Assembly (NCBI GenBank): GCA_001769655.1 | Contig: MEPC01000020.1 | Coordinates: 217,922 to 281,921 of the forward strand | DNA length: 64,000 nt | Reading direction: 5' to 3' | Source: Bacteroidetes bacterium RIFCSPLOWO2_12_FULL_37_12 | GTDB lineage: Bacteria > Bacteroidota > Bacteroidia > 2-12-FULL-37-12 | Shown here: positions 2,446 to 43,010 of the stretch, piece by piece | Numbering within the stretch: position 1 is the first letter of the stretch | Layout: each line of letters opens with the position of its first letter | Notes under the pieces: generated by a model | What the model was told of the DNA's origin: nothing | Databases searched by the model: none | The model's input: only the letters and a program-made list of their open reading frames with translations | Translations under genes and position numbers: made by a program

Positions 2446-3671
2446 TTATTCCTGTATATAATCCATTCTTTACGATTCAGAAAACCGGGAATTGTTCCAG
2501 TTACTCCCGAATAGGATTCTGTAATTTTATTTTTTTGCGATTCGTTGATGGTACAATAATTTAAAGAAACCTTAATCGTTTCTTCCTGACCTATAATTTC
2601 GAGGGACTCCGGAGTTTCTTTCAGCATAAAACCATTTTTAATCACCTCATAAAACCGGATAAAATAATCATAACAGGGTTTGGGGTTATGAATTGAATCA
2701 AAAAATCCAAGCCCTCCCTGATTTTTCCTGTTTTCCTCCAAACGGTAAAGGTAAACTTTTTTAACATCATACGTGTAACAGAATTTCAGCAATAAAGCTA
2801 ATTCATAGATAAAATTATACGAATTGATGTATTTTAATTTTTCTGTACTTGACTTTAATACATACGAATAAACATTATATTCGGTAATGTAACTATGAAA
2901 GATACGGGGATCAGGATTAAGAATTTCCGTATAAATATTTTTTTCTTCGGGATAAATATGGAAGGAAAGTGAAATATTTTTCTCCGTAAGGTAAGATAAT
3001 TCATTTTGCACAGATGTTTCAGCGGATTTTCTGATTAAATTTTCTTTAAAAAAAGAGGAAGTATATCCGCAACATAAAACAGTGGAATCGTATTTTTCAA
3101 TATTGCGGTAGAGAATATTTCTGATTTTTTCAAATTCAATCTTATTTCCCCAGAAAAACAAAGGTGCGTCCGGTTCATTTCCGATTTCAAACTGAATAGG
3201 TGGTAACCAACCTTTTCGGACTATATTTTCAAAAAAAGTTTGCATGTACAGAGTATATTTTTCATAATCGGTGGGAGGAAAACGGTTAGAATAACTGTAT
3301 GCTTTTTTTTGTTTTTCATTTAATTGGGAAAGGTCAGCGTTTTCTTCATAAGGAAAATCAGAGATGGAAATTAACAGTTTGAAATCATGCTTAATAATTT
3401 TTTCAATGTAGCCATATAGTTTAGCGCTGTCATTGTATAATCCTTTGGTAAATGGTTCAAATACACGTAATGAATTTATATTTTGTTTTTTTAGCCGGTC
3501 CAATAAGGGTTCAATCTGAGTTATTTCGTTGAGATATCCGATGTTAAACCCGAATTCAACATTCTTAAATAAGTTAGTTGACGCCGGTTCAGAAATCTGG
3601 CAAAAGGAAGTATAAAAAGAAATAAGAAAGGAAAACGATAAAAATGTTTGCGAAAGAATGGGGGATTTCAT
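2442..3671 (-). CDS. Secreted clan GH-A glycoside hydrolase (GH5/GH39-like), probably an exopolysaccharide-processing hydrolase
   Basis: N-terminal signal peptide. 'FEIGNEPD' is the NEP acid/base motif of TIM-barrel clan GH-A. Start overlaps the acetyltransferase stop (ATGA). Confidence 0.6.
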   Translation of the reverse strand: MKSPILSQTFLSFSFLISFYTSFCQISEPASTNLFKNVEFGFNIGYLNEITQIEPLLDRLKKQNINSLRVFEPFTKGLYNDSAKLYGYIEKIIKHDFKLLISISDFPYEENADLSQLNEKQKKAYSYSNRFPPTDYEKYTLYMQTFFENIVRKGWLPPIQFEIGNEPDAPLFFWGNKIEFEKIRNILYRNIEKYDSTVLCCGYTSSFFKENLIRKSAETSVQNELSYLTEKNISLSFHIYPEEKNIYTEILNPDPRIFHSYITEYNVYSYVLKSSTEKLKYINSYNFIYELALLLKFCYTYDVKKVYLYRLEENRKNQGGLGFFDSIHNPKPCYDYFIRFYEVIKNGFMLKETPESLEIIGQEETIKVSLNYCTINESQKNKITESYSGVTGTIPGFLNRKEWIIYRNK

Positions 3672-4249
3672 GCGTCCAATCGCGTTTCAAAAAATTGTTT
3701 ATTATTTTTCATCTCATCTTTACTCCAATCCCACCATTTTAAAATTTGCATTTTCTGAATAGTTTCCTCAGAAAATCTTTTCCGGATAAATACAGCAGGA
3801 TTTCCTCCATAGATACCGAATGGCTCGGCGTCTTTAGTAATTACAGAGCCGGCGGCTAATACGGCTCCGTTTCCTATTTTTACTCCCGGCAAAATAATGA
3901 CGTGGTCGCCTATCCAGACATTATGACCAATGGATACGTCTTTTTTAGCGGAAATTTTTGCCATTCCCGTAATTTCTTTTTGTAATTTATATTGAAGGTT
4001 CGGATAATTCATGTCATGGTTTGAACTGATGATATCAATGAACCCGCCGAAAGCGCAATAGTTGCCGATTTCAACGTTACCGCTCCCTTTAATAAGAACA
4101 GGACCATTTATGCATGTGCCGGTACCGATAGTAAGATTCGCCGATAATACAGAGCCCTTCCTGATAAAAACTTTTTGATAGTTTAACGAAAAGAAATTCA
4201 AATAAAAATTTAGAAATTTTCTGTGAAGAGGGGTTTTAATTATCAGCAT
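3668..4249 (-). CDS. Sugar O-acetyltransferase, left-handed beta-helix (hexapeptide repeat; maltose/galactoside acetyltransferase-like)
   Basis: Hexapeptide repeats 'IGDHVIILPGVKIGNGAVLAAGSVITKD…GNPA' at the C-terminus. Confidence 0.8.
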   Translation of the reverse strand: MLIIKTPLHRKFLNFYLNFFSLNYQKVFIRKGSVLSANLTIGTGTCINGPVLIKGSGNVEIGNYCAFGGFIDIISSNHDMNYPNLQYKLQKEITGMAKISAKKDVSIGHNVWIGDHVIILPGVKIGNGAVLAAGSVITKDAEPFGIYGGNPAVFIRKRFSEETIQKMQILKWWDWSKDEMKNNKQFFETRLDA

Positions 4250-4316
4250 AATAACTAAGTAAGTATTAAGGATTTTTGGCTACTGTTCAGCCCAATAAAT
4301 GGCAACTACTCGGCAT

Positions 4317-4467
4317 AAAAAAAAGTTCTCACGCAAAGTCGCAAAGAACGCAAAGTAAAAAATCATTAATGATTTTTTTTCTTTGCGTTCTTAATTCTTT
4401 GCGTACTTTGCGCCTTTGCGTGATATAATATTCGCGAGAAATAACACCGGTCTGAGTAGTTTTTTTG
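4317..4467. repeat. About 150-bp structured intergenic repeat (MITE-like), copy 1. It contains the long imperfect hairpin TCACGCAAAGTCGCAAAGAACGCAAAG…CTTTGCGTTCTT…CTTTGCGTGA and terminal inverted ends AACTACTC…GAGTAGTT.
   Basis: A near-identical copy lies at 51654–51800 (about 85% identity over ~145 nt). Both copies are intergenic and in the same orientation. Confidence 0.8.
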
Positions 4468-4479
4468 TGGGATTTAGTG

Positions 4480-5817
4480 TCAGTTTTTAGTTTTTAAAAA
4501 AGGTATATAAGCCACAAAGATACCAAATTTCTTATAGACCACGATTAAACACAGGATATTTGCCATTATCAAAGCAATCATATTTGATAAAGCGGCCCCA
4601 TTCATTCCCCATAAAGGGATAAGCCAGAAACTCAAAACAATGCCGAGAAAGGATGTTGCCATGATAATGTATTGAAAGATTACCTGATTGTTAGTCATCA
4701 GAAGAATCAACCCGACAGAACCGGAAATGGCACTGATAAATTGTCCGATGGAAATTAATACAAATGCAAGTGAACCGGATGTAAATTCCTTTCCATAAAG
4801 ACCCAAAATAAAACCCGGAAACAAAACAAACAGCACTAAAACTGGAGCCGAAGTAATAAAAATCATTTTGGTGGATTGTTTTGCAACGGTAGCAAATCCT
4901 TTCATATCCTGAGTAGCGAACAATTCTGAGAATTTAGGAGCAGAAATGCTGTTAACGGAAGCGAGCACTACACTACTTAAAGCTCCCAAACGTAATGCTA
5001 CATTATAAATACCCACTTCTGCATCGTCTCTGTAAATTCCAAGAATAATGGTATCGGTCCAACTTTGAATGAAACTTAAGGCGGAGGGTACCAGCATGGG
5101 AAGTGCAAGGGTTATTAAAGCGGAAGATGAAATTACAGGGTCATTAGTAACTATCTTACAACGGGGAGTTTTGTTTTCCCAATAATACCATGCTACCAAA
5201 GCAGAAAGAAAAATTGCTGAAATAAATGAATAAAAAACCAGCAAACTATTCCGGGAAAAATACCATAGCGATAAAAATAGTAATGTTGCGAACACATAAA
5301 ACAAACCTTTCTGTATAAAAGAATATGCCATAATATCTTTGCGACCTCTCAGGGATTCTGAAATAATAAAAAGCAATACATAAGGCAGGAGGCAAAAAGA
5401 AAATAATTTTATGGTATCCGCCAGATAGGGTTTAGAGAATATTTTATCAGCAATCAGTGGAGCGGAGAAATATAACAGGAACGATAATATAATATTGAAA
5501 GGAACAAGTATGCGGATAGATTTATTGAACAATGGCTTAATCAAATCATTTTTATTTTGTGCAAGGTATTGTGGGATTAATTTTAACAGAGCCATATCCA
5601 TTCCCCCTTTTCCAAGTATACTGAAAAGTGACAGTACGGCAAACCCAATCGAAAAAACGCCCACCGTTCCGGCTCCGGTAAATCGTGCCACTAACCAGAA
5701 AAAAATAAAATTCATTCCCATGCTGAGGGCTTTGACTATAAATGCCACAGTGCTCCCTTTCAGCATCTCGGAGAAATGCCGGTCGTTGCGGAATCTGGAG
5801 TAATATTTCTGAAACAT
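4480..5817 (-). CDS. wzx: Wzx-type oligosaccharide flippase (polysaccharide biosynthesis protein, MOP superfamily)
   Basis: 445 aa, about 12 TM helices, typical Wzx size and composition, placed in a polysaccharide locus. Confidence 0.7.
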   Translation of the reverse strand: MFQKYYSRFRNDRHFSEMLKGSTVAFIVKALSMGMNFIFFWLVARFTGAGTVGVFSIGFAVLSLFSILGKGGMDMALLKLIPQYLAQNKNDLIKPLFNKSIRILVPFNIILSFLLYFSAPLIADKIFSKPYLADTIKLFSFCLLPYVLLFIISESLRGRKDIMAYSFIQKGLFYVFATLLFLSLWYFSRNSLLVFYSFISAIFLSALVAWYYWENKTPRCKIVTNDPVISSSALITLALPMLVPSALSFIQSWTDTIILGIYRDDAEVGIYNVALRLGALSSVVLASVNSISAPKFSELFATQDMKGFATVAKQSTKMIFITSAPVLVLFVLFPGFILGLYGKEFTSGSLAFVLISIGQFISAISGSVGLILLMTNNQVIFQYIIMATSFLGIVLSFWLIPLWGMNGAALSNMIALIMANILCLIVVYKKFGIFVAYIPFLKTKN

Positions 5818-5862
5818 GCGGGTAAAAGTAATATTTTATTTGCTTACATCAACTATTTTATA

Positions 5863-5870
5863 TATGTTTG
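5863..5870 (+). promoter_or_regulatory. Bacteroidetes -7 promoter box TATGTTTG inside the shared 14-mer ATATATGTTTGTAT. The same 14-mer lies upstream of cysD.
   Basis: Matches the TAnnTTTG consensus of Bacteroidetes sigma-A promoters. An identical 14-mer occurs at 7887–7900 upstream of cysD. Confidence 0.45.
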
Positions 5871-7655
5871 TATTTCATCAGCGGCATCATGGATAAAATT
5901 ATTGTTTCCCTTGTCATTCTTTTTGTTGTAGTATCGCTTTACAAGGAACTATTCCGTCCGGTAGCGACTTTTGTAATTGCTATTGTTGTTCTGCTTTTAT
6001 TCAGAATTCTTTCTCCCAAAGATGTGCTTGCAGGTTTTGCCAACGAGCAGATAGCTGTTATTTTCCTTTTACTTGTGCTGAGTGATGTCATTAAGAAAAC
6101 CGGAGCGCTGGATATTTCAATGAAAAAAATTTTCAAACCCGGTCTTTCTTATCCTTCTTTTATGACAAGAATGTTCGGATCTGTTTCGTTTACTTCTGCC
6201 TGGGTAAACAACACTCCGTTAGTCGCTATCATGATTCCCCATATTTATCAATGGGCAAGGAAATGTAAAATATCGCCTTCAAAAGTTTTGTTGCCTTTGT
6301 CCTACGCGGCTATTCTCGGCGGCACGGTGACATTAGTAGGAACCTCTACCAACCTGGTGGTAAATTCATTGACCGTTGAGGCGCATCTTCCACCCTTAAA
6401 AATGTTTGATTTCACACTCATTGGAATTCCGTTAGTTATCCTCGGAGGACTTTTTTTATTAGTAGCGGGTCATAAGCTATTGCCTGAACGGCATGATTTA
6501 TTATCGGGCTTTTCTGAAAAATCAAGAGAGTACATTACGGAAACGGTTGTGCCTGCCGGTTCGCCCTTAATAGGAAAAAATATTGAAGAAGCCAACCTTC
6601 GTAATCTGAGAGGATTATTTTTGGTAGAAATCATTCGCGATGGAAGACAGATTGTTCCTGTTTCTCCCCGTGAAATAATCCGTCAGAGCGATGAATTGAT
6701 TTTTGCCGGAGAGGTGAATACAATCATTGATTTGGTGAAAGACCCTTCCATTCTTTCACTACCTCAATTTTCAAATCTTCATCCACAGGAAAACATCACC
6801 ATTGTAGATGTGGTTATTTCAACGAATTCAGTTATGAATGGAATGAGTGTGAAAAACACAAATTTCCGTGGAAAATACGATGCGGCAATTGTTGCCATCA
6901 GCAGAAACGGAGAAAAATTATCCGGAAAGATTGGAGACACATTGTTGCAGGCGGGTGATTTGTTATTGCTGGTGGTTGGCAAAGATTTTTATCAGAGAAC
7001 GGAAGGGGTGCAGGATTTTTATATTATTTCGAACGTGCGGGAACTGAATCACATTAATTCTAAAAAAGTATGGTTGATTTTATTATTTACACTCGCCGTT
7101 TTTGTATTGTCTGGTATAGGAATTATTTCCTTGTTTTTCGGATTGTTGATACTGTTAAGCATTTTTGCTTTTTTTAAATTTGTAAAATTAAAAGAAGTAA
7201 AAGAAAATTTAGACCTTCAGCTTCTTTTGATGTTGGTTTTATCGTTGGCATTGGGGAAAGCCATTGAACTATCCGGTACTGCAAATGTGTTAGCAAACAT
7301 GATGATTTCCGTCACTCAATCACTACATAGTCCTGTCATAATATTATTGGGTTTGTTTCTGATAACTCTCATACTGACTAACGTAATAACCCATGCCGCC
7401 GCCGCCGCTGTAATTTTCCCGATAGCGGTTGCCGCGGCGGTTCAACTTGGATTGGATACAAAACCATTTATTCTTGCGGTGGCTTATGCGGCATCCTGCG
7501 GTTTTATGACCCCCTTTAGCTATCAAACCAATTTAATGGTTTACGGTCCAGGCGGATATAAATTTTCAGATTACCTGCATATCGGATTCTGGATGACACT
7601 TATTTCAGTGGTGGTGTGCGTGGGCGGGTTGGGATTGGTGTATGGGTTGTTTTGA
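5868..7655 (+). CDS. DASS/SLC13-family anion permease with two central TrkA-C domains; probably a sulfate transporter. An alternative start MDKII lies at 5889.
   Basis: 595 aa with N- and C-terminal transporter halves, cytoplasmic TrkA-C-like domains in the middle, and a conserved 'TNLMVYGPGGY' end. It sits directly upstream of cysD. Confidence 0.7.
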   Translation: MYFISGIMDKIIVSLVILFVVVSLYKELFRPVATFVIAIVVLLLFRILSPKDVLAGFANEQIAVIFLLLVLSDVIKKTGALDISMKKIFKPGLSYPSFMTRMFGSVSFTSAWVNNTPLVAIMIPHIYQWARKCKISPSKVLLPLSYAAILGGTVTLVGTSTNLVVNSLTVEAHLPPLKMFDFTLIGIPLVILGGLFLLVAGHKLLPERHDLLSGFSEKSREYITETVVPAGSPLIGKNIEEANLRNLRGLFLVEIIRDGRQIVPVSPREIIRQSDELIFAGEVNTIIDLVKDPSILSLPQFSNLHPQENITIVDVVISTNSVMNGMSVKNTNFRGKYDAAIVAISRNGEKLSGKIGDTLLQAGDLLLLVVGKDFYQRTEGVQDFYIISNVRELNHINSKKVWLILLFTLAVFVLSGIGIISLFFGLLILLSIFAFFKFVKLKEVKENLDLQLLLMLVLSLALGKAIELSGTANVLANMMISVTQSLHSPVIILLGLFLITLILTNVITHAAAAAVIFPIAVAAAVQLGLDTKPFILAVAYAASCGFMTPFSYQTNLMVYGPGGYKFSDYLHIGFWMTLISVVVCVGGLGLVYGLF

Positions 7656-7748
7656 GGGGTGACATGACCATCTTAGAAGTTCTGAATATTAAAAAAAATT
7701 GTTACTAATCAGCACATAGCAACTTTTGCTCTAAAAGAACAACACTAT

Positions 7749-7783
7749 ACATATAACACTAAACAAAAAATGTTTAAGTGTTA
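7749..7783. repeat. Palindromic element TAACACTAAACA-N6-TGTTTAAGTGTTA. Positions 7749–7771 form a 23-mer that is repeated exactly, in inverted orientation, at 13644–13666.
   Basis: The 23/23-nt match ACATATAACACTAAACAAAAAAT versus its reverse complement at 13644–13666 was read directly from the sequence. Confidence 0.8.
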
Positions 7784-7889
7784 ATAGATTATTTGGGCTT
7801 TTCATTTAACATTAAATATTTTTTGTTTTATGTTATTTGTTTCTTCTTGCGGCTAATGATATCTTCTGAGCAGTTACAAAAAATTCATA

Positions 7890-7897
7890 TATGTTTG
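7890..7897 (+). promoter_or_regulatory. -7 promoter box TATGTTTG upstream of cysD, about 33 nt before the ATG
   Basis: Matches the TAnnTTTG consensus and sits within the 14-mer shared with the permease upstream region. Confidence 0.45.
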
Positions 7898-7929
7898 TAT
7901 CTTAACTAAACCCACAAAACGCAATCATC

Positions 7930-8835
7930 ATGGTATCCTACAAATTAACCCATCTCCAGGAATTAGAATCCGAATCCATCTTTATAATCCGCGAAGTAGC
8001 CGCACAATTTGAAAGACCTTGTCTTTTATTTTCAGGGGGTAAGGACTCGATTGTTATGGCATATCTGGCTTATAAAGCATTTTATCCGGCTAAAATTCCG
8101 TTCCCATTGGTGCATATTGACACAGGGCACAATTTTCCGGAGACGCTTACATACAGAGATGAATTAGTAAAACGTCTGAACGCAACGTTGCTCGTGGGAT
8201 TAGTTCAGGAGAGCATTGACAAAGGAAGAGCGACAGAAGAAAAGGGCTACAATGCGAGCCGTAATGTATTGCAAACGGTTACTTTATTAGATACCCTTGA
8301 AGCGCATAAATTTGATGCCGCTATGGGAGGAGCGAGAAGGGATGAAGAAAAAGCAAGAGCGAAAGAGCGGTTTTTTTCGCACCGCGATGAATTCGGGCAA
8401 TGGGATCCCAAAAACCAACGTCCGGAACTCTGGAATTTATTCAACGGGAAAAAGAATATCGGAGAGCATTTCCGGGTTTTTCCGTTGAGCAACTGGACGG
8501 AAATGGATATCTGGCAGTACATTGCGTTGAATCAAATTCCGATTCCTTCACTCTATTTCACTCATGAAAGAGATTGTTTTACAAGAGACAACGTGATTTA
8601 TTCTGCATCCGATTGCATGCTCAGGCGACCGGAAGAAAAAATTGAACGCAAGCAGGTGCGATTCAGAACCATAGGGGACATGACTTGCACCGGCGCTGTG
8701 ATTTCAAAAGCCAATTCTCTGGAAGATATTATTCAGGAAGTGGCGGCATCGCGTACTACAGAGAGAGGCACCCGTGCGGATGATAAGCGTTCGGAGACCG
8801 CTATGGAGGATAGAAAAAAGCAGGGGTATTTTTAA
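7930..8835 (+). CDS. cysD: Sulfate adenylyltransferase subunit 2 (CysD; PAPS-reductase-like ATP-PPase fold)
   Basis: 'SGGKDS' PP-loop, 301 aa, strong family resemblance throughout. Confidence 0.9.
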   Translation: MVSYKLTHLQELESESIFIIREVAAQFERPCLLFSGGKDSIVMAYLAYKAFYPAKIPFPLVHIDTGHNFPETLTYRDELVKRLNATLLVGLVQESIDKGRATEEKGYNASRNVLQTVTLLDTLEAHKFDAAMGGARRDEEKARAKERFFSHRDEFGQWDPKNQRPELWNLFNGKKNIGEHFRVFPLSNWTEMDIWQYIALNQIPIPSLYFTHERDCFTRDNVIYSASDCMLRRPEEKIERKQVRFRTIGDMTCTGAVISKANSLEDIIQEVAASRTTERGTRADDKRSETAMEDRKKQGYF

Positions 8836-8918
8836 GAATGAACACTCGTAAACCTGTGTCTGAGGAGTATATATAGAAAATAGAATTGCTCCTACAAATA
8901 GTAATTAACACAAAAAAC

Positions 8919-9764
8919 ATGAATAAAATGGAACAGCAATCAGCCATAAAAATTTTCGAAGAAAAAAAAGTAAGAACTCTGTGGGATGCTGAACAGGAGA
9001 AATGGTATTTATCCATAGTAGATGTGATAGCCGTTTTAACTGAAAGTCCCAATCCAAGAAAGTATTGGAGCGTTCTGAAAACACGATTAAAAGCTGAGGG
9101 AAGCCAGTTGGCTACAAATTGTAGTCAACTGAAAATGCAGTCGGCGGATGGTAAATTTTATCTTACGGATGTAGCCGACACGGAACAACTTTTCAGATTG
9201 ATTCAATCCATTCCATCGCCCAAAGCAGAGCCATTTAAACTTTGGCTTGCACAAGTTGCCTCTGAAAGATTAGATGAAATGCAAGATCCGGAACTCACTA
9301 TTGACAGAGCAATGAAAGAATATTTGCAATTGGGATATTCTGAAAGCTGGATAAATCAGCGGCTGAAAAGCATTGAAATTCGAAAAGAACTGACCGATGA
9401 ATGGAAAAAAAGAGGATTGAAAGAAGGAGTTCAGTTTGCAACGCTTACCGACATTATTACTAAGGCATGGAGTGATAGAACCACAAAAGAATATAAAATT
9501 CTGAAAGGGTTGAAGAAAGAAAATCTTAGAGATAATATGACCAACACCGAATTGATTTTAAACATGCTTGCGGAAGCATCAACCAAAGAAATTTCCTCCG
9601 TGGTTGAACCCAAGGATTTTGACACCAGTATAAAAGTGGCAAAGCAGGGTGGTGATGTCGCTAAAGTAGCAAGGAAAGAATTGGAAGCGCGGACAGGGAA
9701 AAAAGTGGTTACTTCTTTAAATGCAAAAGCTGTTTTGAGTTTGAAAGAGAGACAAGAAAAATAA
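8919..9764 (+). CDS. Bro-N domain protein (DinD / phage-antirepressor-like). The ORF extends from 8886; the likely start is MNKMEQQ at 8919.
   Basis: Bro-N-like N-terminus 'IKIFEEKKVRTLWDAEQEKWYLSIVDVIAVL', DinD-like length, inserted between cysD and cysN. Confidence 0.55.
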   Translation: MNKMEQQSAIKIFEEKKVRTLWDAEQEKWYLSIVDVIAVLTESPNPRKYWSVLKTRLKAEGSQLATNCSQLKMQSADGKFYLTDVADTEQLFRLIQSIPSPKAEPFKLWLAQVASERLDEMQDPELTIDRAMKEYLQLGYSESWINQRLKSIEIRKELTDEWKKRGLKEGVQFATLTDIITKAWSDRTTKEYKILKGLKKENLRDNMTNTELILNMLAEASTKEISSVVEPKDFDTSIKVAKQGGDVAKVARKELEARTGKKVVTSLNAKAVLSLKERQEK

Positions 9765-9787
9765 ATGAATATCGTTTTTGTTGTACT

Positions 9788-10261
9788 ATGAAACCACCCC
9801 AAAACATGAAAAAAAAATCACACCCCTACATCCCATTCCTGCTGGAAGACATAAAAGCCGCCCACCGCAGTTCTGCCGTTGCAAAATTGAACGAGCCGAA
9901 AACCATTGAAGAAGAACTGGAAGAATCGGAGCGTTTTGTTTCTGACGAACGCGAACATACGCTCAGTTATTACTGCGGATTGAAACCGGAGGACTTTCCT
10001 CCTGTAGAACAACTGTCTGATAGAGATATGCAAAAGGTATGCGAAGCGTTTAATACAATGATGGATACGTGGAATTTGTCTGTTGATTTGCCGGAGAATC
10101 TGCCGCCTTCTTTAGCATATCAACTGACGATTGGATTATTAAGTAAAGAGACCTTCATTCCCAATTGTGGGACATTGCATATTGACTTTTGCACGGGCTA
10201 TGCACCGGACTGTGAATTGAAGCAATATTGCCCCTGTCTGAAAATCTGGAACGAAAAATAA
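9788..10261 (+). CDS. Hypothetical Cys-rich protein (157 aa; motif CGTLHIDFCTGYAPDCELKQYCPC)
   Basis: The ORF is open, sits in the same operon position after the Bro-N gene, and I recognise no family for it. Confidence 0.35.
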   Translation: MKPPQNMKKKSHPYIPFLLEDIKAAHRSSAVAKLNEPKTIEEELEESERFVSDEREHTLSYYCGLKPEDFPPVEQLSDRDMQKVCEAFNTMMDTWNLSVDLPENLPPSLAYQLTIGLLSKETFIPNCGTLHIDFCTGYAPDCELKQYCPCLKIWNEK

Positions 10262-10271
10262 CCCACTCAAT

Positions 10272-11957
10272 TTACTTTCTCCTCAAAATCTTTTTTAAAA
10301 CAATCTTCTCAACCCAACTATGAAAAGGATAAATCAAAATCGCAACGCCGGCATTGAAAATTAATTTCCAGACAGGCGCTCCTCCCGTCCATTGCTCTAC
10401 ATAAGGGTCAATCAGCACAATGATAAATTCAAACCATAATAAAATGGATATGAAAATAATGGCTTCAATCAATTTCCGTCCTACATGAATTCGTACCAGT
10501 AAAATGATGGCTGTAAACAATATGACAAAAGCGATGGCAATGCCCGAATACTGAAGAATATTTCGACGGGTTTTTTCTTCCATGGAAATTCTCAATGATT
10601 CTGCTTCCACGCTTTTTTTAATGATTTCTGCTTTTTCATATTCATATTGCGTCTCCAAACGGGCTTGCTTTTTTTCATTATCCTTATTGTAAATACTATC
10701 GCGATATAAAATATAATTCTGATAATTTTCGAATGCCTGTTTGTAATAGTTGCCTCCATTCAGATTATTCAGATTCTTTTCTCCTTTTATTTTAAAAATT
10801 TCAGCGAGGTGTTGAAAGTTATCTTTGCATAGATCCTTACTGCCGATTTCTTTAGCAATGGATAAACTCTTTAAACAAAACTCTTCCGCTTTTTCCAACT
10901 CTTTTTGATTCAAATAAACTAATCCAATATTCCCATACTTATAAGAGATACTTTCTTTGTGACCGATTTCTTCTGCAATCTTCAATCCCTTGTTCAGATA
11001 TTCAAGAGCCAAGGGGTATTTTACTGTCATTGCATAATGATTATTTCCTGCTTTTACAGCGGAGTCACCTTGAAAAACAAAAACTAATCCTATACTACCC
11101 AGCAAAGTTGTGGCGCTATATTGATTTCCCATTTCTTCCGAAATTTTCAATGCTTTCAAAAAATAATTTAATGCCATTGTTAATTTACCTTGCGAAACAT
11201 AGTTCTCTCCCATATTATTAAGGATGATAGCAATTCCATAATTATTTCCGGTTTTCTCAACAAGTTCTAATGATTTGGAATAATAATTAAGGGCAAGCGG
11301 CAAATTTTCCTGCATAGTATAAACATTTCCGATATTACTGTAAATGGATGCGATCAAATCATTATCTTTCAAGACAACGGAAATTTTTAACGCCTGAAAA
11401 TAATAATCCAGCGCTTTTGGATAATTTCCCTGTTTAACCAATACCGCTCCTATGTTGCCCTGAAATCTTGCCATCTTTTGTTTGTCTCCGATTTCCTTAG
11501 ATATTTTTAATGCTTTCTGGAAGTAATTCAGCCCTTTGGTCATGTTCCCTTGCTCTATATAAATAACTCCTATATTCCCGGTTGCCGCGGCTATACCACT
11601 GTTATCAAATAACTGTTCGTAAATTTTTAATGATTGAAATTGAAAAAAAAGCGCAGAATCATAGTTACCTTTTAATCTATAGAATATTCCAAGATTGCTG
11701 TAAATATTTCCCAGCCCTATTAGCCAACGGGCTTTTAGTGCCAAAGCAAGGGCTTGCTTTCCTAATAGGATAGAAGTGTCGGGATTTTTGAACCGAAATG
11801 AAGAGCCGATTGTATTCAGTATATCTGCTTTTTCAGTATCTATACGGGAAATTTTTAATCTGGAAAAAAGGGAATCAATAGTGTCAGCGTTTGAGAAAGT
11901 TGGTAGATTAGGAGAAAATAGTATGCAGAGTAGGAAAATAATCGAATAATTTCTCAT
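10272..11957 (-). CDS. Periplasmic TPR-repeat protein with a coiled coil and the conserved C-terminal 3-TM module (FEF…DPY…GGAPVWK…P-x-H), with no kinase or output domain
   Basis: Signal peptide, more than 8 TPR-like repeats. The C-terminal ~70 aa align with the C-termini of the ORFs at 38700, 16261, 26171 and 31052. Confidence 0.75.
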   Translation of the reverse strand: MRNYSIIFLLCILFSPNLPTFSNADTIDSLFSRLKISRIDTEKADILNTIGSSFRFKNPDTSILLGKQALALALKARWLIGLGNIYSNLGIFYRLKGNYDSALFFQFQSLKIYEQLFDNSGIAAATGNIGVIYIEQGNMTKGLNYFQKALKISKEIGDKQKMARFQGNIGAVLVKQGNYPKALDYYFQALKISVVLKDNDLIASIYSNIGNVYTMQENLPLALNYYSKSLELVEKTGNNYGIAIILNNMGENYVSQGKLTMALNYFLKALKISEEMGNQYSATTLLGSIGLVFVFQGDSAVKAGNNHYAMTVKYPLALEYLNKGLKIAEEIGHKESISYKYGNIGLVYLNQKELEKAEEFCLKSLSIAKEIGSKDLCKDNFQHLAEIFKIKGEKNLNNLNGGNYYKQAFENYQNYILYRDSIYNKDNEKKQARLETQYEYEKAEIIKKSVEAESLRISMEEKTRRNILQYSGIAIAFVILFTAIILLVRIHVGRKLIEAIIFISILLWFEFIIVLIDPYVEQWTGGAPVWKLIFNAGVAILIYPFHSWVEKIVLKKILRRK

Positions 11958-12188
11958 GTACGTTCGGTTTAATTCAGGGGGTTGGTTTTTATAGGATTTC
12001 AGAGCAAAGTTATTGAAAATATATTCAAAGATTTATGTTAAAAGCATTTCGCAATAGAAAAGAAAGTTCTCTTATAAACAGATACCTGAAACTTTACTAT
12101 TTTGACAGTATGTAAGAAGTGATATTTTATCTTTAAATTTGCACGAAACAAAACTATTCCCAAGATTTAACCAAACGCAAATAAGTCC

Positions 12189-13454
12189 TTGCACACCAAC
12201 AAATATCTCGACATGGACCTCCTCCGCTTCACCACTGCAGGAAGCGTAGATGATGGCAAAAGCACGTTAATTGGGCGGTTGCTTTTTGATAGCAAATCCA
12301 TTTTTGAAGACCAACTTGAAGCCGTTGAATCCTCCAGCAAACGAAAAGGATTAGATCACATAGATTTATCCCTGCTGACAGATGGATTAAAGGCAGAACG
12401 CGAACAGGGAATCACCATTGATGTGGCTTACCGGTATTTTGCAACACCCAAACGTAAATTTATTATCGCCGATACTCCTGGGCATATTCAATATACCCGT
12501 AACATGGTGACAGGAGCATCAACCGCTAATCTGGCTATAATTTTAATTGATGCACGGAAAGGTGTTCTTGAACAGACCTGCCGTCATTCGTATATCGCTT
12601 CCCTGTTAAAAATCCCTCATCTGGTGGTCTGCATAAACAAAATGGATCTGGTGGACTACAAAGAAGAAGTATTTGAAAAAATTGTGCACGATTTTGATAA
12701 TTTTTCTTCCAAACTGGAAGTGGTTGATATTAATTATATTCCTATCAGTGCGTTGAAAGGGGACAATGTGGTTGACAAAAGTAAAAACATGGATTGGTAT
12801 CATGGTCAAACCTTGTTGTATTTACTGGAACATATCCATATCGGAAGCGACTATAATCATATTGATTGCCGGTTTCCGGTGCAGTATGTGATACGCCCTC
12901 ATTCAGATGAACATCATGATTACCGGGGGTATGCTGGAAGAATTGCCGGCGGAGTGTTTAGAGTAGCAGACAAAGTAAAAGTTTTACCCGGTGGCTTTAC
13001 TTCAACCATCAAAACCATTGATTTTTTCAACCAGTCATTAAAAGAAGCATACCCTCCCATGTCAGTGACACTAACCCTTTCCGATGACATTGATATCAGC
13101 AGAGGAGACATTATTGTAAGGGAAAATAACGTACCGCAGTTGGGGCAGGACATTGACATGATGATGTGCTGGTTTAATCCCAAGAAAATGAATCCCGCCG
13201 GCAAATATTTTTTGAGACATAACACCAAAGAAGGAAAGTGCATGGTAAAAGAAGTGCGTTATAAAGTGGATATCAATACCATGCAACGCAACGAAACGGA
13301 TAAAGACGTTTGCATGAATGACATTGCCAGGGTGTTAATCAGAACCACTTTCCCCTTGTGTTTTGACAGTTACCGGAAAAACCGTATCACTGGCAGTGTC
13401 ATACTTATGGATGAAGGAACCAATGAGACGGTGGCGGCTGGGATGATTGTTTGA
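12189..13454 (+). CDS. cysN: Sulfate adenylyltransferase subunit 1 (CysN GTPase)
   Basis: G1 box 'GSVDDGKSTLIGRLL', 'DTPGH', 'NKMD', 421 aa. Confidence 0.9.
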   Translation: MHTNKYLDMDLLRFTTAGSVDDGKSTLIGRLLFDSKSIFEDQLEAVESSSKRKGLDHIDLSLLTDGLKAEREQGITIDVAYRYFATPKRKFIIADTPGHIQYTRNMVTGASTANLAIILIDARKGVLEQTCRHSYIASLLKIPHLVVCINKMDLVDYKEEVFEKIVHDFDNFSSKLEVVDINYIPISALKGDNVVDKSKNMDWYHGQTLLYLLEHIHIGSDYNHIDCRFPVQYVIRPHSDEHHDYRGYAGRIAGGVFRVADKVKVLPGGFTSTIKTIDFFNQSLKEAYPPMSVTLTLSDDIDISRGDIIVRENNVPQLGQDIDMMMCWFNPKKMNPAGKYFLRHNTKEGKCMVKEVRYKVDINTMQRNETDKDVCMNDIARVLIRTTFPLCFDSYRKNRITGSVILMDEGTNETVAAGMIV

Positions 13455-13558
13455 GGGAGGGGCAATTCCTTAACCATTTTTTACAGAAGTTTAGCTATAT
13501 TTGCGGTAAGGTTGTGGGAAAATATACTAAAGGTAATCAGGTTTACGAAAAAAATGAA

Positions 13559-13666
13559 TAACACATAACACTAAACACATAACATAAAACACATAACATA
13601 AAATTATAAATGTAATAGAGGTTGAGCACTTAGAAGTTTTTTATTTTTTGTTTAGTGTTATATGTT
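13559..13666. repeat. AT-rich repeat cluster. It has tandem CACATAAC(A) units and the ATAACACTAAACA motif in both orientations. The 23-mer inverted copy of the 7749–7771 element lies at 13644–13666.
   Basis: Read directly from the sequence. Confidence 0.75.
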
Positions 13667-13700
13667 TTTTTAATTCTTAAACCTGAGCGGGTATTTATAG

Positions 13701-13759
13701 AAAATAGTAAATAGAAAATAGTAAATAGAAAATAGTAAATAGAAAATAGCCCCCCCCCC
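13701..13759. repeat. 14-nt tandem repeat (GAAAATAGTAAATA × about 3.6) immediately followed by a C10 homopolymer tract
   Basis: Read directly. C10 is highly atypical in this ~36% GC sequence. Confidence 0.85.
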
Positions 13760-16260: not shown

Positions 16261-19044
16261 TTGAAAATGTCTTTCAGAATAAACCATACACTGCATATAT
16301 TTTTATTCTTTTTTATATTTATTCTTGTTCTTGTTCTCTCCCCCGCTTACGCCCAAAACTACCGGATAGAAAAATACTCAGTGGAAGCAGGCATGGCACA
16401 GGCATCGGTGGTTGACATAGAACAGGACAAAGATGGAAATATTTGGTTTGCCACTTCGGGCGGCGCTACTTATTATAATGGTAAGACATTTGAAACCGTC
16501 ACTACCGGTCATGGCTTGTTAAATAACAGGGTGCGGGAAATTTTTTGCGACAAAAAAGGAAATATCTGGATAGGTACCGGTGAGGGAATTTCAGTCATCC
16601 ATTACAATTCATTTCTTCATAGTGACACATTATCGGTTAAGAATTATACCAAGGCACAAGGGTTACCCGATAACCGGATTTCCAGCATAATACAAGACAC
16701 AAAAAACCGGATATGGATTACTACAACTGGAGGTGTGGCACGGTATCTATATAACGTGTTGGACACTTCCTGCACAAAATGTTTCAGTACGTTTACCGTA
16801 GAAAGCGGATTATTTACCAATCAAATCAATTCAATCTACGAGGATTTAAAAGGACAATTATGGCTCTGTTCACAAAAAGGATTAGCCATGTTCAATCCGG
16901 ATGATCTTTCCGGGAAAATTCTTAATCCCTTGATTTTAAATACAAGTAATGGATTGAAAGAAAACACGGTGAGAACAATAGCGCAGGGTAAAGACGGGAT
17001 TTATTGGATAGGTCTGTTGGGTTCATTAATGAGAATGAAATTAACGGATGATGATAAAAAATATTTCACATTGGAAGATGGTGTAAATTATTTTCCTGTT
17101 TTATTCGGAAATCAGATTCAACGCGCTACGGTTGACCCTAATGGAGATGTCTGGATTGGGGCACACGGTGCGCTAAGAATCTCCGAAGAGGGCAGTGATT
17201 TTATCAGCATGGATAATGGATTGGGAAAGGGTTCCGTAAGAGCAGTTTTTCATGACAGAGAAGGCAATACCTGGTTCGGAACATCTGCAGAAGGATCCAG
17301 CAAATTCAGAAGTAAAATGTTTTCGGTTTATAGCACGGATCATGGACTTATCTGCAATGATTTAAGAGCTATACTGGAAGACCACCGGGGATGGGTATGG
17401 ATGGCTGGTGCCACCGGACTGTCACTGTTAAATCCAGCGGAAAAAAATTATCAGAAACCATACAAAAAGCTTTTCCGGAATTATTCTACCCGCGAAGGAA
17501 TAAATTATACGGGCTCACTCTGGTCGTTGGCAGAAGATAAAGAAGGCAATATCTGGATAGGTGCCGGCGGTGGAATTTCTGTGGTAAATGCAAAAGAATT
17601 TGAAAAAGGAAAAGTGGTATTTGACAATTTTTTGGAAGCAGATGGCTTAAAGAATCCCGCCACCATGGCTTTATATCAGGATAAGAAAGGTAGAATCTGG
17701 GCGGGAACTTTAGGAGGGATTGCGTTATTTCAGGGAAAACTCTTTGAATCGAAAACAGTTCGGACGTCTCAACATAAAAAACATCCCTCATTCAATTTTT
17801 ATGGTCCTGAAAAAGGCATTCCTTTTTCACAGATACTTGATATTAAGGAAGACGCACGCGGAAATTTATGGATTGGTTCCGGCGGTGGATTACTCCGGCT
17901 CAAAGAGTTGACGGATGACACCATTGAAGTGGAAATTATTGGAACGCAACAAGGGTTAAAGAATATTCACATTTTATCAATTACGGAAGATAAAGTTGGA
18001 AATCTTTGGCTGGGAACTGCCGGAGGAGTTACTAAATTAAAAGTGATTCGCAACGAACCACTCGAAGTGAGTGTCACTAACTATACTGTAAAGGACGGAC
18101 TGAGTTCAGATACTCCGTACTTGCTGTTGATTGACAGCAAAGGGGATTTGTGGGTGGGAACCAACCGCGGAGTTGACCGTTTTTACATACGACAGGGAGA
18201 ATTTAAAAAAATCAAATCTTACGACAAAGACCAAGGATTTTCGGGTATTGAATGTAATCACAATGCCGGCTGGATGGACCGGAACGGGAACCTGTGGTTT
18301 GGGACGATGGGGGGCGCCATTTATTATAATGGAAGGGAAGATAAACCGAACCTGACGGAGCCGCTTGTAAAAATTTCAGAGTTAAAATTATTTTATGATA
18401 AAATAAATCCAGTTAATTTTGAAAAAAAAGAAACTGCTTATAGTGATTCCTCCTCTTCCCTTTTATTCAATTACAATCAAAATCACCTGACATTTGAATA
18501 TATCGGCGTAAGTTTAAGCCATCCGGATAAGGTAACCTATCAATATATGTTAAGAGGATTTGATAATGGCTGGAGTCCGGTGACACGCGAAAACGATGCT
18601 ACTTATTCAAATATACCACCCGGCAACTATGTTTTTATGGTAAAGGCGTGCAACGAGGAAGGAATCTGGAACCGTAAACCGGTTGAAATATCGTTTACCA
18701 TAAAAAAGCAATATTGGGAAACGGGATGGTTTTACACATTACAGGTTTTATTTTTTGCCGTTCTTATCGGAACTACATTTTATTTAAACCGCTCCAACAC
18801 CCAAACGCGTATTGCCACGACGCTGATTTTTGTCACGTTGTTTGTCAGTTTTGAATATGTAGAGGAAACGGTGGAGCCCTATCTGATGAATTTCACCGGC
18901 GGCGCTCCGCTTTTTAAAGTCATAACCAATTTGATTCTCGCATCCATTCTTGTTCCGGTGGAGCATCGTATCCGTAAATTTCTTGCGGGATTAAGTAAGG
19001 GGAAAGAGGAGGGGGAGATTGAGAATACGGTAGTTAGTGACTAA
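16261..19044 (+). CDS. Periplasmic Reg_prop (two-component regulator propeller) + Y_Y_Y domain protein. It ends in the conserved 3-TM module instead of histidine-kinase, receiver or AraC domains.
   Basis: Signal peptide. Many 'DxxGNIWIGT' propeller repeats. Y_Y_Y region 'TYQYMLRGFDNGWSP…ATYSNIPPGNYVFMVKA'. C-terminus 'WETGWFY…FEYVEETVEPYLMNFTGGAPLFKV…VPVEH'. Confidence 0.8.
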   Translation: MKMSFRINHTLHIFLFFFIFILVLVLSPAYAQNYRIEKYSVEAGMAQASVVDIEQDKDGNIWFATSGGATYYNGKTFETVTTGHGLLNNRVREIFCDKKGNIWIGTGEGISVIHYNSFLHSDTLSVKNYTKAQGLPDNRISSIIQDTKNRIWITTTGGVARYLYNVLDTSCTKCFSTFTVESGLFTNQINSIYEDLKGQLWLCSQKGLAMFNPDDLSGKILNPLILNTSNGLKENTVRTIAQGKDGIYWIGLLGSLMRMKLTDDDKKYFTLEDGVNYFPVLFGNQIQRATVDPNGDVWIGAHGALRISEEGSDFISMDNGLGKGSVRAVFHDREGNTWFGTSAEGSSKFRSKMFSVYSTDHGLICNDLRAILEDHRGWVWMAGATGLSLLNPAEKNYQKPYKKLFRNYSTREGINYTGSLWSLAEDKEGNIWIGAGGGISVVNAKEFEKGKVVFDNFLEADGLKNPATMALYQDKKGRIWAGTLGGIALFQGKLFESKTVRTSQHKKHPSFNFYGPEKGIPFSQILDIKEDARGNLWIGSGGGLLRLKELTDDTIEVEIIGTQQGLKNIHILSITEDKVGNLWLGTAGGVTKLKVIRNEPLEVSVTNYTVKDGLSSDTPYLLLIDSKGDLWVGTNRGVDRFYIRQGEFKKIKSYDKDQGFSGIECNHNAGWMDRNGNLWFGTMGGAIYYNGREDKPNLTEPLVKISELKLFYDKINPVNFEKKETAYSDSSSSLLFNYNQNHLTFEYIGVSLSHPDKVTYQYMLRGFDNGWSPVTRENDATYSNIPPGNYVFMVKACNEEGIWNRKPVEISFTIKKQYWETGWFYTLQVLFFAVLIGTTFYLNRSNTQTRIATTLIFVTLFVSFEYVEETVEPYLMNFTGGAPLFKVITNLILASILVPVEHRIRKFLAGLSKGKEEGEIENTVVSD

Positions 19045-19481
19045 AATGTTTTAAAGGGATGCAACGTTGCCTCCTGAATACATTCTACAAGATAAAACTC
19101 CTTTAGTTCTGGAAATGTCCGCAATTGTCGAACAAGAAAAATTGTCTCGGGTAAAATTAACGCATGATTTTTATACAATTTAAAAAAATTCTGAATTTAA
19201 AAAGAAGCGAGAAAAATCTTTGTTTCCGAGAAAGGAAATAATGTTGTACGTTCAGTAGTGATTAGTTACATATATTGTTTATTATGGAAGAATTTATTAT
19301 ATTTGTTAGGTTTTTATTTTTATAGAATTTTATTATTTAAAACACACCTATAAAAAAATTAACACGGACATCTCAATGTTGCAAACAAATAAACAATTAC
19401 ACATCATTGGAGACCAGTGACCAATCAAAAAAACGGGGTGTCCCCGAAAAACCATACGAGTAGGGCTAATATGAAAATGAC

Positions 19482-33887: not shown

Positions 33888-35729
33888 ATGAAACAATACC
33901 TCCTGATTTTTATTTATTATTTTATCATTCCAACTGTTTTCGGACAAACATGGATTCAGCAAGCTAATTTCGGGGGCGCTGGAAGATATTCCGCATCCGG
34001 TTTTGTTATTGGAAACAAATGTTATATCGGTACCGGCTACAACGGAAGTGCTTTAAAGGATTTTTGGGAATATGACCCTGGATCTGATACGTGGACAGAA
34101 ATTGCAACATTTGGTGGCTCAGGTAGAAGCGGCGGAGCGGCTTTTTCAATTGGTTCTAAAGGATATGTTGGTGTTGGTTGGGATGGTTCACCATTGAGCG
34201 ATTTTTGGGAATGGGATCAAACAAGTAATAGCTGGACACAAAAAGCAGATTTTGGGGGTAAGTCAAGGGTAAGTGGCGCTGGATTTTCTATTGGGTTTCT
34301 TGGTTACATTGGTGTAGGATTTAACGGAGCTTCCTCTTACTATCAGGATTTTTGGGAATATAATCCTGCTAACGATAGCTGGACTTTATTTACCGATTCT
34401 TGTATAACATCGGCGGCTTATGTTGTTGCATTTACTATCGGAACGGATGCCTATTGGGGTACAGGGAGAACGGGGACTGGTAATTATACACAGAACTTCT
34501 GGAAATTAAGCCAAAGTTTTGAACCCGTTTCTTTATCATTTACTACAAATCCGGGTACACTTTGCGATGATAATTCTATAACATTTAAGAATACTTCAAT
34601 AGGAATTAGTTCCTTTTTATGGGATTTTGGAGATGGTACTACAATCATAAGTACTAATCCAACGCACCAGTTTCCAGGTGCAGGTGCGTATAAAGTAATG
34701 CTTAAACCAAGTTCCTTCATGTGTCCGGAGGATTCATCTACTCAGATTATTACAATAAATTCTTCCCCCACCCTCTCCCTCTCCCCCCTCACCCCTTCCA
34801 TCTGCCCCGGCGACACCGTTACCCTCACCGCAAGTGGTGCCACTTCCTACACTTGGTCACCCTCAACGGGTCTAAATGTAACTTCGGGAGATACGGTTAT
34901 TGCCAACCCCGACTCTACTACAAATTATAAAGTTGTAGGCACGAATTCTACTGGTTGTTCAGATAGTGTGGAAGTTACTGTAACCGTACAAACTTCCGTT
35001 ACTTCCTCTTTTGCTTTTACTTCCAATTGTAAAACTGTTAGTTTTACAAATAATAGCCAAAACGGGACAAATTATTTCTGGGATTTCGGTGATGGAATAA
35101 CAAGTTCAGATATTAATCCTGCACACCTTTATGCAGATACAGGCATTTATAAAGTGATGCTTGTGGTAAATTCATTAAACTGTGGTAACGATACATCCAT
35201 TCAAAATATAACTATTTCCACGCCCATAAAAGCACAATTTTCTTACGCCATTGATACCTGCGTCGCCACCGTGAATTTTATAAATTTGTCTCCCTCAGCT
35301 AATACTTTTTTCTGGAAATTTGGAGATAATAGCATCAGCAATTTAAAAAATCCTTCTCATCAATATACTGTTTCCGGAAATTATTCTATAAATTTAATCG
35401 TTAATTCCGGTACAGAGTGCGCCGATTCAATTCAACATAATATACCTATTGATAAGGATTGGCTTAATTCCACTATTACTATCCCGAATATTTTTACCCC
35501 CAACGGAGACGGAATCAATGATAAATTTGAAATTCTCAGCAACAATATCTGCAATAAATACAACATTAAGATTTTCAACAGGTGGGGGCAACTACTTATT
35601 GACATTACTGACTTTACTTACCCTTGGGATGGAAAATTAAATGGCAGTGTAATTCCTGAGGGTGTTTATATATATGTAATTCAGGGAGAAAAAAATGTCA
35701 AAACGGGAACATTAACTGTTTTAAGATAA
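33888..35729 (+). CDS. T9SS-secreted protein: N-terminal Kelch-type beta-propeller repeats, PKD-like domains, and a type B T9SS CTD
   Basis: Kelch-like repeats '…DFWEYDPGSDTWTEIATFGG…GAAFSIGSKGYVGVG'. C-terminus 'IPNIFTPNGDGINDKFEI…NRWGQLL…WDGKLNG'. Confidence 0.75.
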   Translation: MKQYLLIFIYYFIIPTVFGQTWIQQANFGGAGRYSASGFVIGNKCYIGTGYNGSALKDFWEYDPGSDTWTEIATFGGSGRSGGAAFSIGSKGYVGVGWDGSPLSDFWEWDQTSNSWTQKADFGGKSRVSGAGFSIGFLGYIGVGFNGASSYYQDFWEYNPANDSWTLFTDSCITSAAYVVAFTIGTDAYWGTGRTGTGNYTQNFWKLSQSFEPVSLSFTTNPGTLCDDNSITFKNTSIGISSFLWDFGDGTTIISTNPTHQFPGAGAYKVMLKPSSFMCPEDSSTQIITINSSPTLSLSPLTPSICPGDTVTLTASGATSYTWSPSTGLNVTSGDTVIANPDSTTNYKVVGTNSTGCSDSVEVTVTVQTSVTSSFAFTSNCKTVSFTNNSQNGTNYFWDFGDGITSSDINPAHLYADTGIYKVMLVVNSLNCGNDTSIQNITISTPIKAQFSYAIDTCVATVNFINLSPSANTFFWKFGDNSISNLKNPSHQYTVSGNYSINLIVNSGTECADSIQHNIPIDKDWLNSTITIPNIFTPNGDGINDKFEILSNNICNKYNIKIFNRWGQLLIDITDFTYPWDGKLNGSVIPEGVYIYVIQGEKNVKTGTLTVLR

Positions 35730-42966: not shown

Positions 42967-43010
42967 ACATTTTTTATTAAGTGTTTTATGTTAAGTGTTA
43001 TTCTTTCAGA
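42967..43010. repeat. Palindromic element AACACTTAAACA-ttttttat-TAAGTGTT, a relative of the 7749/13644 motif. It may act as a weak terminator after coaBC.
   Basis: Read from the sequence. Confidence 0.5.

Follow-up and report, generated by a model that had tools for sequence, protein, structure and literature searches.

Three genes between cysD and cysN of an aquifer Bacteroidota bacterium: a probable islet of embedded accessory genes in a recurrent landing pad

Small genes nested in defence operons are already known, PrrC and the PDC and HEC candidates among them, and PrrC, which lies within a type I restriction-modification (R-M) operon in the order hsdM-hsdS-prrC-hsdR, is the classical embedded second-line defence. 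The phage defence candidates (PDCs) are defined, in the work that introduced them, by being nested in type I R-M, BREX or DISARM systems; PADLOC received 145 of them without experimental test, while seven systems were confirmed (Payne et al., 10.1101/2024.01.29.577857). The present analysis shows that small embedded genes recur at a housekeeping operon across Bacteroidota. The stretch under study, referred to below as the window, comprises 64,000 nucleotides (nt) of Bacteroidetes bacterium RIFCSPLOWO2_12_FULL_37_12, in which cysD and cysN, the genes for the two subunits of sulfate adenylyltransferase, are held apart by three other genes. In our reading, which we consider probable, the three genes of this 3.3-kb insert have independent evolutionary origins and accumulated, in this lineage specifically, in a recurrent landing pad; the insert is thus an embedded-gene islet and not a feature of the sulfur pathway.

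The interrupted cysD-cysN locus and its relatives

The genes that make up the locus are the following, in order along the window:

7930..8835, plus strand: cysD, sulfate adenylyltransferase small subunit (NCBIfam CysD equivalog NF009214, 435.1 bits, cut-off 413)
8919..9764, plus strand: Bro-N gene, 281 amino acids (aa), with a helical C-terminal half (PF02498, 2.1e-9, residues 17-112; 38.3 bits, cut-off 25.6)
9788..10261, plus strand: 157-aa Cys-rich open reading frame (ORF; 151 aa if read from 9806), with the C-terminal motif D[FY]C[TS]GYAPxCx5[YF]CxCxxxW; orf157 below
10272..11957, minus strand: TPR-3TM gene, 561 aa (TPR_12, 2.3e-45), whose product combines TPR repeats and a coiled coil with a signal or transmembrane (TM) segment and, at the C-terminus, a three-TM module
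12213..13454, plus strand: cysN, sulfate adenylyltransferase GTPase subunit, without a CysC fusion (NCBIfam equivalog NF003478, 593.8 bits, cut-off 590)

Between the cysD stop at 8835 and the cysN ATG at 12213 lie 3377 nt with three intact genes, the successive spacers (cysD/Bro-N, Bro-N/orf157, orf157/TPR, TPR/cysN) measuring 83, 23, 10 and 255 nt. The initial annotation had described cysD and cysN as split by about 3.3 kb of inserted genes, and the ORF map reproduces every one of its coordinates. Both enzyme subunits are intact and score above the curated equivalog cut-offs; CysD also matches TIGR02039 with 425.6 bits (cut-off 396.6) and CysN scores 560.2 bits with TIGR02034. The cysN start is likely to be the ATG at 12213 and not the TTG at 12189 with which the ORF opens, and the N-terminus thus predicted, MDLLRFTTAGSVDDGKS, aligns with relatives from residue 1.

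An identical gene order is present in an ENA k141 contig (157 kb), in two ANAN16 scaffolds, in GCA_001769355.1 and in JGI 3300025311, all of which represent one aquifer Bacteroidota population that carries the NCBI names RIFCSPLOWO2_12_FULL_37_12 and _02_FULL_36_8; because independent assemblies share this order, the arrangement is real and not an artefact of assembly. A chimera of assembly or binning, by which the insert would not truly lie between cysD and cysN in any single genome, could be suspected from the several metagenome contigs that break inside the Bro-N gene (comparison loci L083-L087, L189 and L190) and from an N10 gap at Bro-N in one scaffold, yet identical sequence runs from cysD through cysN in long contigs or scaffolds of independent origin, at least three in number (157, 137 and 93 kb), and we regard such a chimera as vanishingly improbable. 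Many contigs of the species start or end within the Bro-N gene, at window positions 8987-9425, where L083 is 3% divergent, and these breaks are attributable to the conservation of the gene across species (78-82% at the nucleotide level, 85-91% at the amino-acid level), which tangles assembly graphs. What appeared to be a split Bro-N gene in L188 is the N10 scaffold gap. No empty site, with cysD joined directly to cysN, was found in the same species by exact-protein look-up, and the Bro-N gene follows cysD on every contig.

For comparison, 80 loci were collected around those CysD genes of GTDB species representatives that come closest to the window copy (71-78% identical, most of them from Bacteroidota), and the counts of adjacency rest on the 77 that have both genes inside the fetched stretch. 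cysD and cysN are adjacent in 62 of these 77, separated by 16-335 nt with median-type values of about 50-130 nt; inserted ORFs lie between them in 14, and an ORF-less spacer of 566 nt does so in one. Two further loci have cysD with no cysN nearby, one from a Rikenellaceae metagenome-assembled genome (MAG; L016, locus positions 8001-10741, within 8 kb) and one from a Saprospirales MAG (L063, locus positions 2730-7416, within 5.4 kb); in the latter, cysD is followed by sufE and then by purE/purK on the opposite strand. A homologue of the Bro-N gene, of orf157 or of the TPR gene occurs in the cysD-cysN gap of none of the 77 relatives, which indicates that the gene order of the window is derived. 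The description of the two genes as normally adjacent and the proposal of an insertion event, both made in the initial annotation, agree with these counts, the cysDN loci of relatives being mostly uninterrupted and the order in the window, which none of them shares, not being ancestral; the accompanying statement that cysD and cysN are often translationally coupled does not hold in this phylum, where spacers of the above lengths mean that the genes usually neither overlap nor are coupled.

The 14 interrupted relatives carry other genes in the same spacer:

L007, L009, L010, L014: PDDEXK_3/GxxExxY proteins
L025, L041, L067, L068, L072: 23S_rRNA_IVP (23S-rRNA-IVS four-helix-bundle proteins, PF05635)
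L024: a pair of AbiEii and AbiEi/DUF6088
L021, L046: HD_3 phosphohydrolases
L073: a PIN_2 gene
L080: a 224-aa ORF without family assignment

With other small genes at this position in 14 of 77 relatives, the spacer between cysD and cysN is one where small accessory genes have landed repeatedly in Bacteroidota. Ten of the relatives carry PDDEXK_3 (GxxExxY), PF05635 or AbiE genes, which are small embedded genes of Bacteroidota and cyanobacteria and which are also found repeatedly beside orf157 homologues and beside the Bro-N gene embedded in R-M operons, but these show no homology to either Bro-N or orf157. The insert of the window is the largest in the sample, alongside the 3.4-kb gap of L021, where an HD_3 protein is accompanied by 135-aa and 390-aa proteins without Pfam match (10739-12234), an arrangement that may constitute another uncharacterised embedded module.

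The Bro-N protein, the Cys-rich family and their usual neighbours

The product of the first inserted gene had been labelled Bro-N/DinD-like, a designation of which the Bro-N part stands on the match to PF02498 and the DinD part is weakly supported. E. coli DinD resembles the window protein in length (274 aa against 281 aa) and its C-terminal half shares 28% identity over residues 125-224 (pairwise BLASTP E = 4e-4), but no NCBIfam DinD model matches at E <= 0.01. The protein matches the PADLOC profile PDC-S13 over its full length (E = 5.9e-137; residues 4-278 align with positions 1-275 of a profile of 286) and phrog_15286 at 1.3e-124. More than 8000 close homologues exist, many of them 85-91% identical, and the family is rare on viral contigs, with 16 members in IMG/VR and four small uncultured 'phage' records. 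The main text of the PDC paper leaves Bro-N unmentioned and reports no anti-phage activity for PDC-S13 (10.1101/2024.01.29.577857), the name 'PDC-S13' appeared in no paper that we found, and a 2013 review of defence systems contains nothing on embedded Bro genes.

Homologues that are 88-91% identical to the window protein stand in type I R-M operons, either in the order hsdR-BroN-hsdM (L177-181, L191) or in the order hsdS-BroN-hsdR (L192-194), where their starts and stops abut the neighbouring genes, and a homologue of 68% identity lies between cas4 and cas1b in a type I-B operon of the Arcobacter plasmid pACLO; three further homologues have unrelated surroundings. Nesting in a defence system, the property by which PDCs are defined, is accordingly displayed by homologues in L177-181, L191, L192-194 and L196, whereas the window copy, although it matches the PDC-S13 model end to end, sits in the metabolic operon cysDN outside any defence system, between cysD and an unannotated ORF and with no R-M partner nearby. 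In L192 the homologue occupies the very operon position of PrrC (hsdM-hsdS-BroN-hsdR, with abutting start and stop), but the two proteins have no sequence relationship; Bro-N joined to a helical domain does not make an anticodon nuclease, and an R-M partner is again missing from the vicinity of the window copy. As a separate observation, the hsd operons of L177-L181 contain a PDDEXK_3 gene (7599-7976) between hsdM and hsdS, and hence two embedded genes in one operon. Given the PDC-S13 membership and the nesting of close homologues in type I R-M and cas operons, the terms 'hitch-hiker' and 'defence-related' that the initial annotation applied were reasonable. Judged from its sequence and surroundings, the Bro-N protein is a very strongly conserved one with an N-terminal domain of DNA-binding type, whose usual home is in type I R-M operons and occasionally in cas operons.

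Constraint on this protein was assessed for the window copy and five homologues from different genomes, which form 15 pairs. These pairs share 85-91% of their amino acids and only 78-82% of their nucleotides, with synonymous divergence (dS) ranging from 1.4 to saturated and a ratio of nonsynonymous to synonymous divergence (dN/dS) of 0.02-0.06; dN is about 0.05-0.10 for Bro-N, against about 0.19-0.22 for CysD to its nearest relatives. Recent horizontal transfer as the source of the 85-91% identities was rejected, synonymous sites being near saturation, and the combination of near-saturated dS with so low a dN/dS points to strong purifying selection and long-term function. That a Bro-N/PDC-S13 protein should be more conserved than CysD at near-saturated synonymous sites implies a strongly constrained function. 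Structure offered little guidance, as the AlphaFold2 model, built from a shallow alignment of sequences 85-100% identical, reached a pLDDT of 54 and was judged unusable, and a PDB sequence search returned insignificant Fic-like matches only (E ~0.5).

The 157-aa product of the second inserted gene finds no match in Pfam, NCBIfam, PHROG or PADLOC, and may in reality start at the ATG at 9806, which would give 151 aa and is possible because homologues begin at MHPY. The family alignment shows five conserved Cys residues, a candidate ligand set for Zn or Fe-S: two of them, C63 and C135, never vary, while conservation reaches at least 90% at C142, C148 and C150, and the spacing is CX6CX5CXC; the N-terminal part carries the conserved motifs HPYxPHLLxDIxAAHR, YYCGL and FPP; the predicted fold is confident, and no structural match to it was found. 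The family comprises 58 word-indexed homologues and 687 cluster representatives by profile search, and those members with a named source come from Bacteroidota and Balneolales. The Bro-N protein is by profile a member of an already catalogued, predicted defence candidate; the Cys-rich family is uncatalogued.

The genomic contexts of the family were drawn from 88 loci, reduced to 68 distinct ones, of which 47 have informative flanks. In 16 of these 47, an estimate that rests on metagenome fragments, the orf157 homologue lies inside a cas operon, of type I in all but one locus, which has Cas9; it runs in the direction of the operon and is placed between the cas3 or effector genes and cas4-cas1-cas2, or, in the Cas9 locus (L091), between the large Cas9 gene and cas1. 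The other contexts are heterogeneous, with homologues after sbcCD and near uvrB, topA, rtcB, peptidases and secreted proteins, and the recurrent small neighbours there are of embedded type: 23S_rRNA_IVP, AbiEii, PDDEXK_3, DUF6922 and DUF6429. An HUH/RAYT-like protein is a further recurrent neighbour of the family. A gene of about 209 aa with an HUH motif (LMPNHxH), similar to IS200/RAYT, often comes right after the orf157 homologue, and HUH-motif genes of about 200 aa without Pfam match are nested in the cas operons of L089 (6636-7268), L091 (6522-7148 and 8213-8803), L103, L124 and L175 (6559-7188), where they immediately follow the orf157 homologue or separate cas1 from cas2. The window itself has no cas gene and no CRISPR array within its 64 kb. 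A role as an anti-CRISPR was considered and set aside: no relative occurs in IMG/VR (2.9 M contigs) or PLSDB, the window protein matches no PHROG, and the absence of the family from these phage and plasmid collections argues against a phage-borne anti-CRISPR. A preprint surveying CRISPR-linked genes contains nothing that matches the Cys-rich family. The family is an undescribed, chromosomal one that has cas operons as its most frequent home and behaves like a cas-embedded accessory gene.

About 40% of members end in an acidic linker followed by [DE][LI]PF-COOH. This tail is carried by 24 of 58 close homologues, by 33 of 82 ORFs of the family in the loci and by 44 of 150 cluster representatives, and by none of 290 neighbouring ORFs. 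About 30 representatives (290-390 aa; for instance P0190, P0197, P0215, P0246 and P0260) have duplicated the domain in tandem, and many of these keep the acidic ...LPF C-terminus. The window protein and its nearest homologue (P0002, 70% identical, from the Cas9 locus) both lack the tail, and a tie between the tail and cas context was rejected, the tail being present in 7 of 24 cas-context loci and in 26 of 58 outside. The C-terminal tip of E. coli SSB (the protein that binds single-stranded DNA), DDDIPF, is the docking peptide for SSB-interacting proteins (PMC5872125). The tails of the orf157 family resemble this peptide, a likeness that may serve as a lead only; neither an OB fold nor any similarity to SSB is present in the family, and the tail is missing from the window copy. 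One may speculate that orf157 represents a new chromosomal family of metal-binding adaptors that plug the machinery of DNA-end processing or spacer acquisition into the SSB network, the cysDN copy being a tail-less stray; the enrichment of orf157 directly upstream of cas4-cas1-cas2, and its occasional place beside sbcCD, uvrB and topA, would fit such a role, which we nevertheless rate as rather doubtful.

The adjacency of the Bro-N gene and orf157 had also raised the suggestion of a two-gene module, be it a toxin-antitoxin pair or a two-component defence system inserted as a unit, and it is true that the two genes lie on the same strand, 23 nt apart and with no terminator between them, and that each family is individually linked to defence operons. 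The partner is missing elsewhere, however, no Bro-N homologue being present in the retrieved flanks of the 68 distinct orf157 loci and no orf157 homologue in the seven Bro-N contexts that were examined; the families differ greatly in abundance within the same database (more than 8000 close homologues of Bro-N against 58 of orf157), and neither protein matches a toxin or antitoxin model in Pfam, NCBIfam or PADLOC. Because the two do not co-occur elsewhere they are probably not a pair, the module was thus not borne out and is highly unlikely, and the juxtaposition looks coincidental, a matter of independent embedded-type genes in a permissive spacer.

A further explanation is that a type I R-M or CRISPR-cas operon once inserted between cysD and cysN and later decayed, leaving Bro-N and orf157 as the embedded genes that survived. 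Both families are typically nested in operons of this sort, and defence operons are gained and lost quickly, so that such a history would be conceivable; but the three intact ORFs fill the interval and their spacers leave no room for pseudogene remnants of hsd or cas genes, the 64-kb window has no CRISPR array, and in relatives single small genes enter the spacer directly, without a defence operon. We therefore consider a decayed operon unlikely, and prefer the reading of separate genes that gathered in a spacer open to them.

The TPR gene, transcription signals and traces of mobility

The third inserted gene encodes a protein in which no output domain follows the TPR array and TM segments. 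Its best homologues outside the species are 31-41% identical, and most of these do carry such a domain, namely adenylate cyclase (PF00211), histidine kinase (PF02518) or SpoIIE (PF07228); the window protein thus shares the TPR array and TM segments with membrane sensors of these types but lacks their cytoplasmic output. At least two full-length paralogues exist in the same genome, one of them in the window at 38700-40388 (34% identical). The three-TM module, recognisable by the motif ...FEF..V.IDPY....TGGAP..K......, is common to two TPR proteins and three Reg_prop/Y_Y_Y proteins within the 64 kb; it has no Pfam model, and its five proteins have no recognisable output domain. The copies of the module are placed as follows:

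10272-10592, minus strand
40071-40376, plus strand
18733-18984, plus strand
31082-31315, minus strand
26240-26365, minus strand

From this distribution the TPR-3TM gene is best read as a lineage-specific paralogue of a sensor-like membrane family that landed in the spacer, and not as mobile cargo.

One could alternatively suppose that the inserted genes are tied to sulfate assimilation, for instance in sensing for the cys operon or regulating it, and that their order is ancestral or has adaptive value: should read-through occur, it would give co-expression of the small genes with cysD, and TPR membrane proteins of this kind are sensor-like. Yet none of the 77 relatives has the inserted genes at cysDN, the families occur in R-M, cas and assorted housekeeping contexts and never with cys genes elsewhere, and the TPR protein is devoid of an output domain, all of which makes a link to sulfate assimilation extremely improbable.

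The signals that may govern transcription of the locus are listed here; promoter boxes are matches to the Bacteroidota -7 consensus TAnnTTTG only, which has a chance rate of about 1 per 1.2 kb.

7740..7849, no strand: AT-rich imperfect palindrome in the gap between permease and cysD (inverted repeat I2; fold -27.4 kcal/mol, z = -5.1)
7890..7897, plus strand: candidate -7 box TATGTTTG, starting 40 nt (ending 33 nt) 5' of the cysD ATG
11958..12212, no strand: divergent TPR/cysN spacer, 255 nt, with candidate -7 boxes from the motif scan
12134-12141, plus strand: candidate -7 box for cysN, TAAATTTG
12012-12005 and 12156-12149, minus strand: candidate -7 boxes for the TPR gene, TAACTTTG and TAGTTTTG, respectively
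13557..13669, no strand: second AT-rich palindrome, 3' of cysN (inverted repeat I3; fold z = -2.3)

TAnnTTTG matches three times within the 255 nt of the divergent spacer, where the density over the window as a whole would predict about 0.2, and boxes precede cysD, cysN and the TPR gene but neither Bro-N nor orf157; a scan for promoters of Sigma-70 type gave 20 sites against 19.7 expected and is uninformative. No terminator-like site was found in 8836-12212, no stable hairpin at the 10-nt convergent junction of orf157 and the TPR gene, and no Rfam match in or near the insert region; the Rfam scan being empty there, no riboswitch precedes cysD. The AT-rich palindromes, each about 110 nt long, stand on either side of the entire cysD...cysN block and share an exact 23-nt core, ACATATAACACTAAACAAAAAAT, at 7749-7771 (plus strand) and 13643-13665 (minus strand), for which 0 are expected by chance; they are likely to be transcript boundaries, and may act as terminators or else represent a small intergenic element that is repeated. 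A weaker copy of the palindrome is found at 42963-42999.

Taken together, these motifs suggest how the islet might be expressed. Bro-N and orf157 would be transcribed by read-through from the cysD promoter and ride on the host operon, which is probable because they have no promoter-like box or terminator of their own and follow cysD on the same strand after spacers of 83 and 23-41 nt; the convergent TPR gene would end or break the cysD operon, and cysN would be transcribed independently, from a promoter of its own located in the divergent spacer of 255 nt. By guilt of embedding, Bro-N and orf157 would most likely be independent single-gene accessories of defence or DNA metabolism, and are probably neither a pair nor components of the sulfur pathway.

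As regards the way in which the genes arrived, the insert contains no integrase or transposase, no direct or inverted repeats flank it at 8836/12212, and the window has no tRNA gene, for which reasons a classical mobile element (insertion sequence, transposon, integrative island or prophage) was rejected.

Several points weigh against the reading of an islet of three independent genes, and should be kept in mind when judging it. No mobility mechanism is evident, since repeats, integrase and transposase are all missing; the GC and GC3 of the three inserted genes fall within the host range, so that nothing marks them as recent arrivals; and the search turned up no insert-free close relative from the same genus, CysD identity reaching 78% at best, and one composite insertion of the three genes is possible. 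With regard to function, the defence role of PDC-S13 is a prediction only, two of the seven Bro-N contexts examined lie outside defence loci, and two thirds of the informative orf157 loci do not lie in defence loci either. Co-transcription and promoter use, finally, are deduced from consensus motifs that occur about once per 1.2 kb by chance.

Other features of the window and significance

Upstream of cysD, at 5868..7655 on the plus strand, the window encodes an anion permease of SLC13/CitMHS type with TrkA_C domains (Pfam CitMHS, 4.8e-53; Na_sulph_symp, 1.6e-10; TrkA_C). A homologue of it lies immediately 5' of cysD in the relatives' loci L018, L035, L067, L072 and L080, and the permease is context and a synteny marker for the sulfate locus. 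Downstream of cysN, at 13697-13759, a perfect 14-nt tandem repeat, ATAGAAAATAGTAA, runs for about four copies and is followed by a C10 homopolymer, immediately 5' of an alanine dehydrogenase/PNT-like gene at 13767; this tract is possibly phase-variable. The only Rfam match in the window is a DUF805 RNA motif at 19402-19470 on the plus strand (69.9 bits, gathering score 51.1), 5' of a 789-aa ORF at 19482. A 139-nt intergenic repeat occurs at 4319-4457 and 51654-51792 (88% identical), and paralogous domains, with two segments of about 280-300 nt that are 75-81% identical, connect 30082-30731 with 34774-35423 in the neighbouring genes 28926-31037 and 33888-35729.

For the sulfur pathway these findings mean very little, as both subunits are intact and each gene has a plausible predicted promoter. 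The parts of most interest are rather the Cys-rich family, with no known fold, its cas association and an SSB-like tail, and the strong constraint on the PDC-S13 protein; an unannotated family that combines association with cas operons and a tail of this type offers a testable lead for CRISPR adaptation or DNA repair. The locus further illustrates that genes catalogued as defence-embedded also nest in housekeeping operons, and caution is warranted when function is predicted through guilt by embedding. The cysD-cysN spacer, for its part, is a natural system for studying how genes spread without visible mobility machinery.

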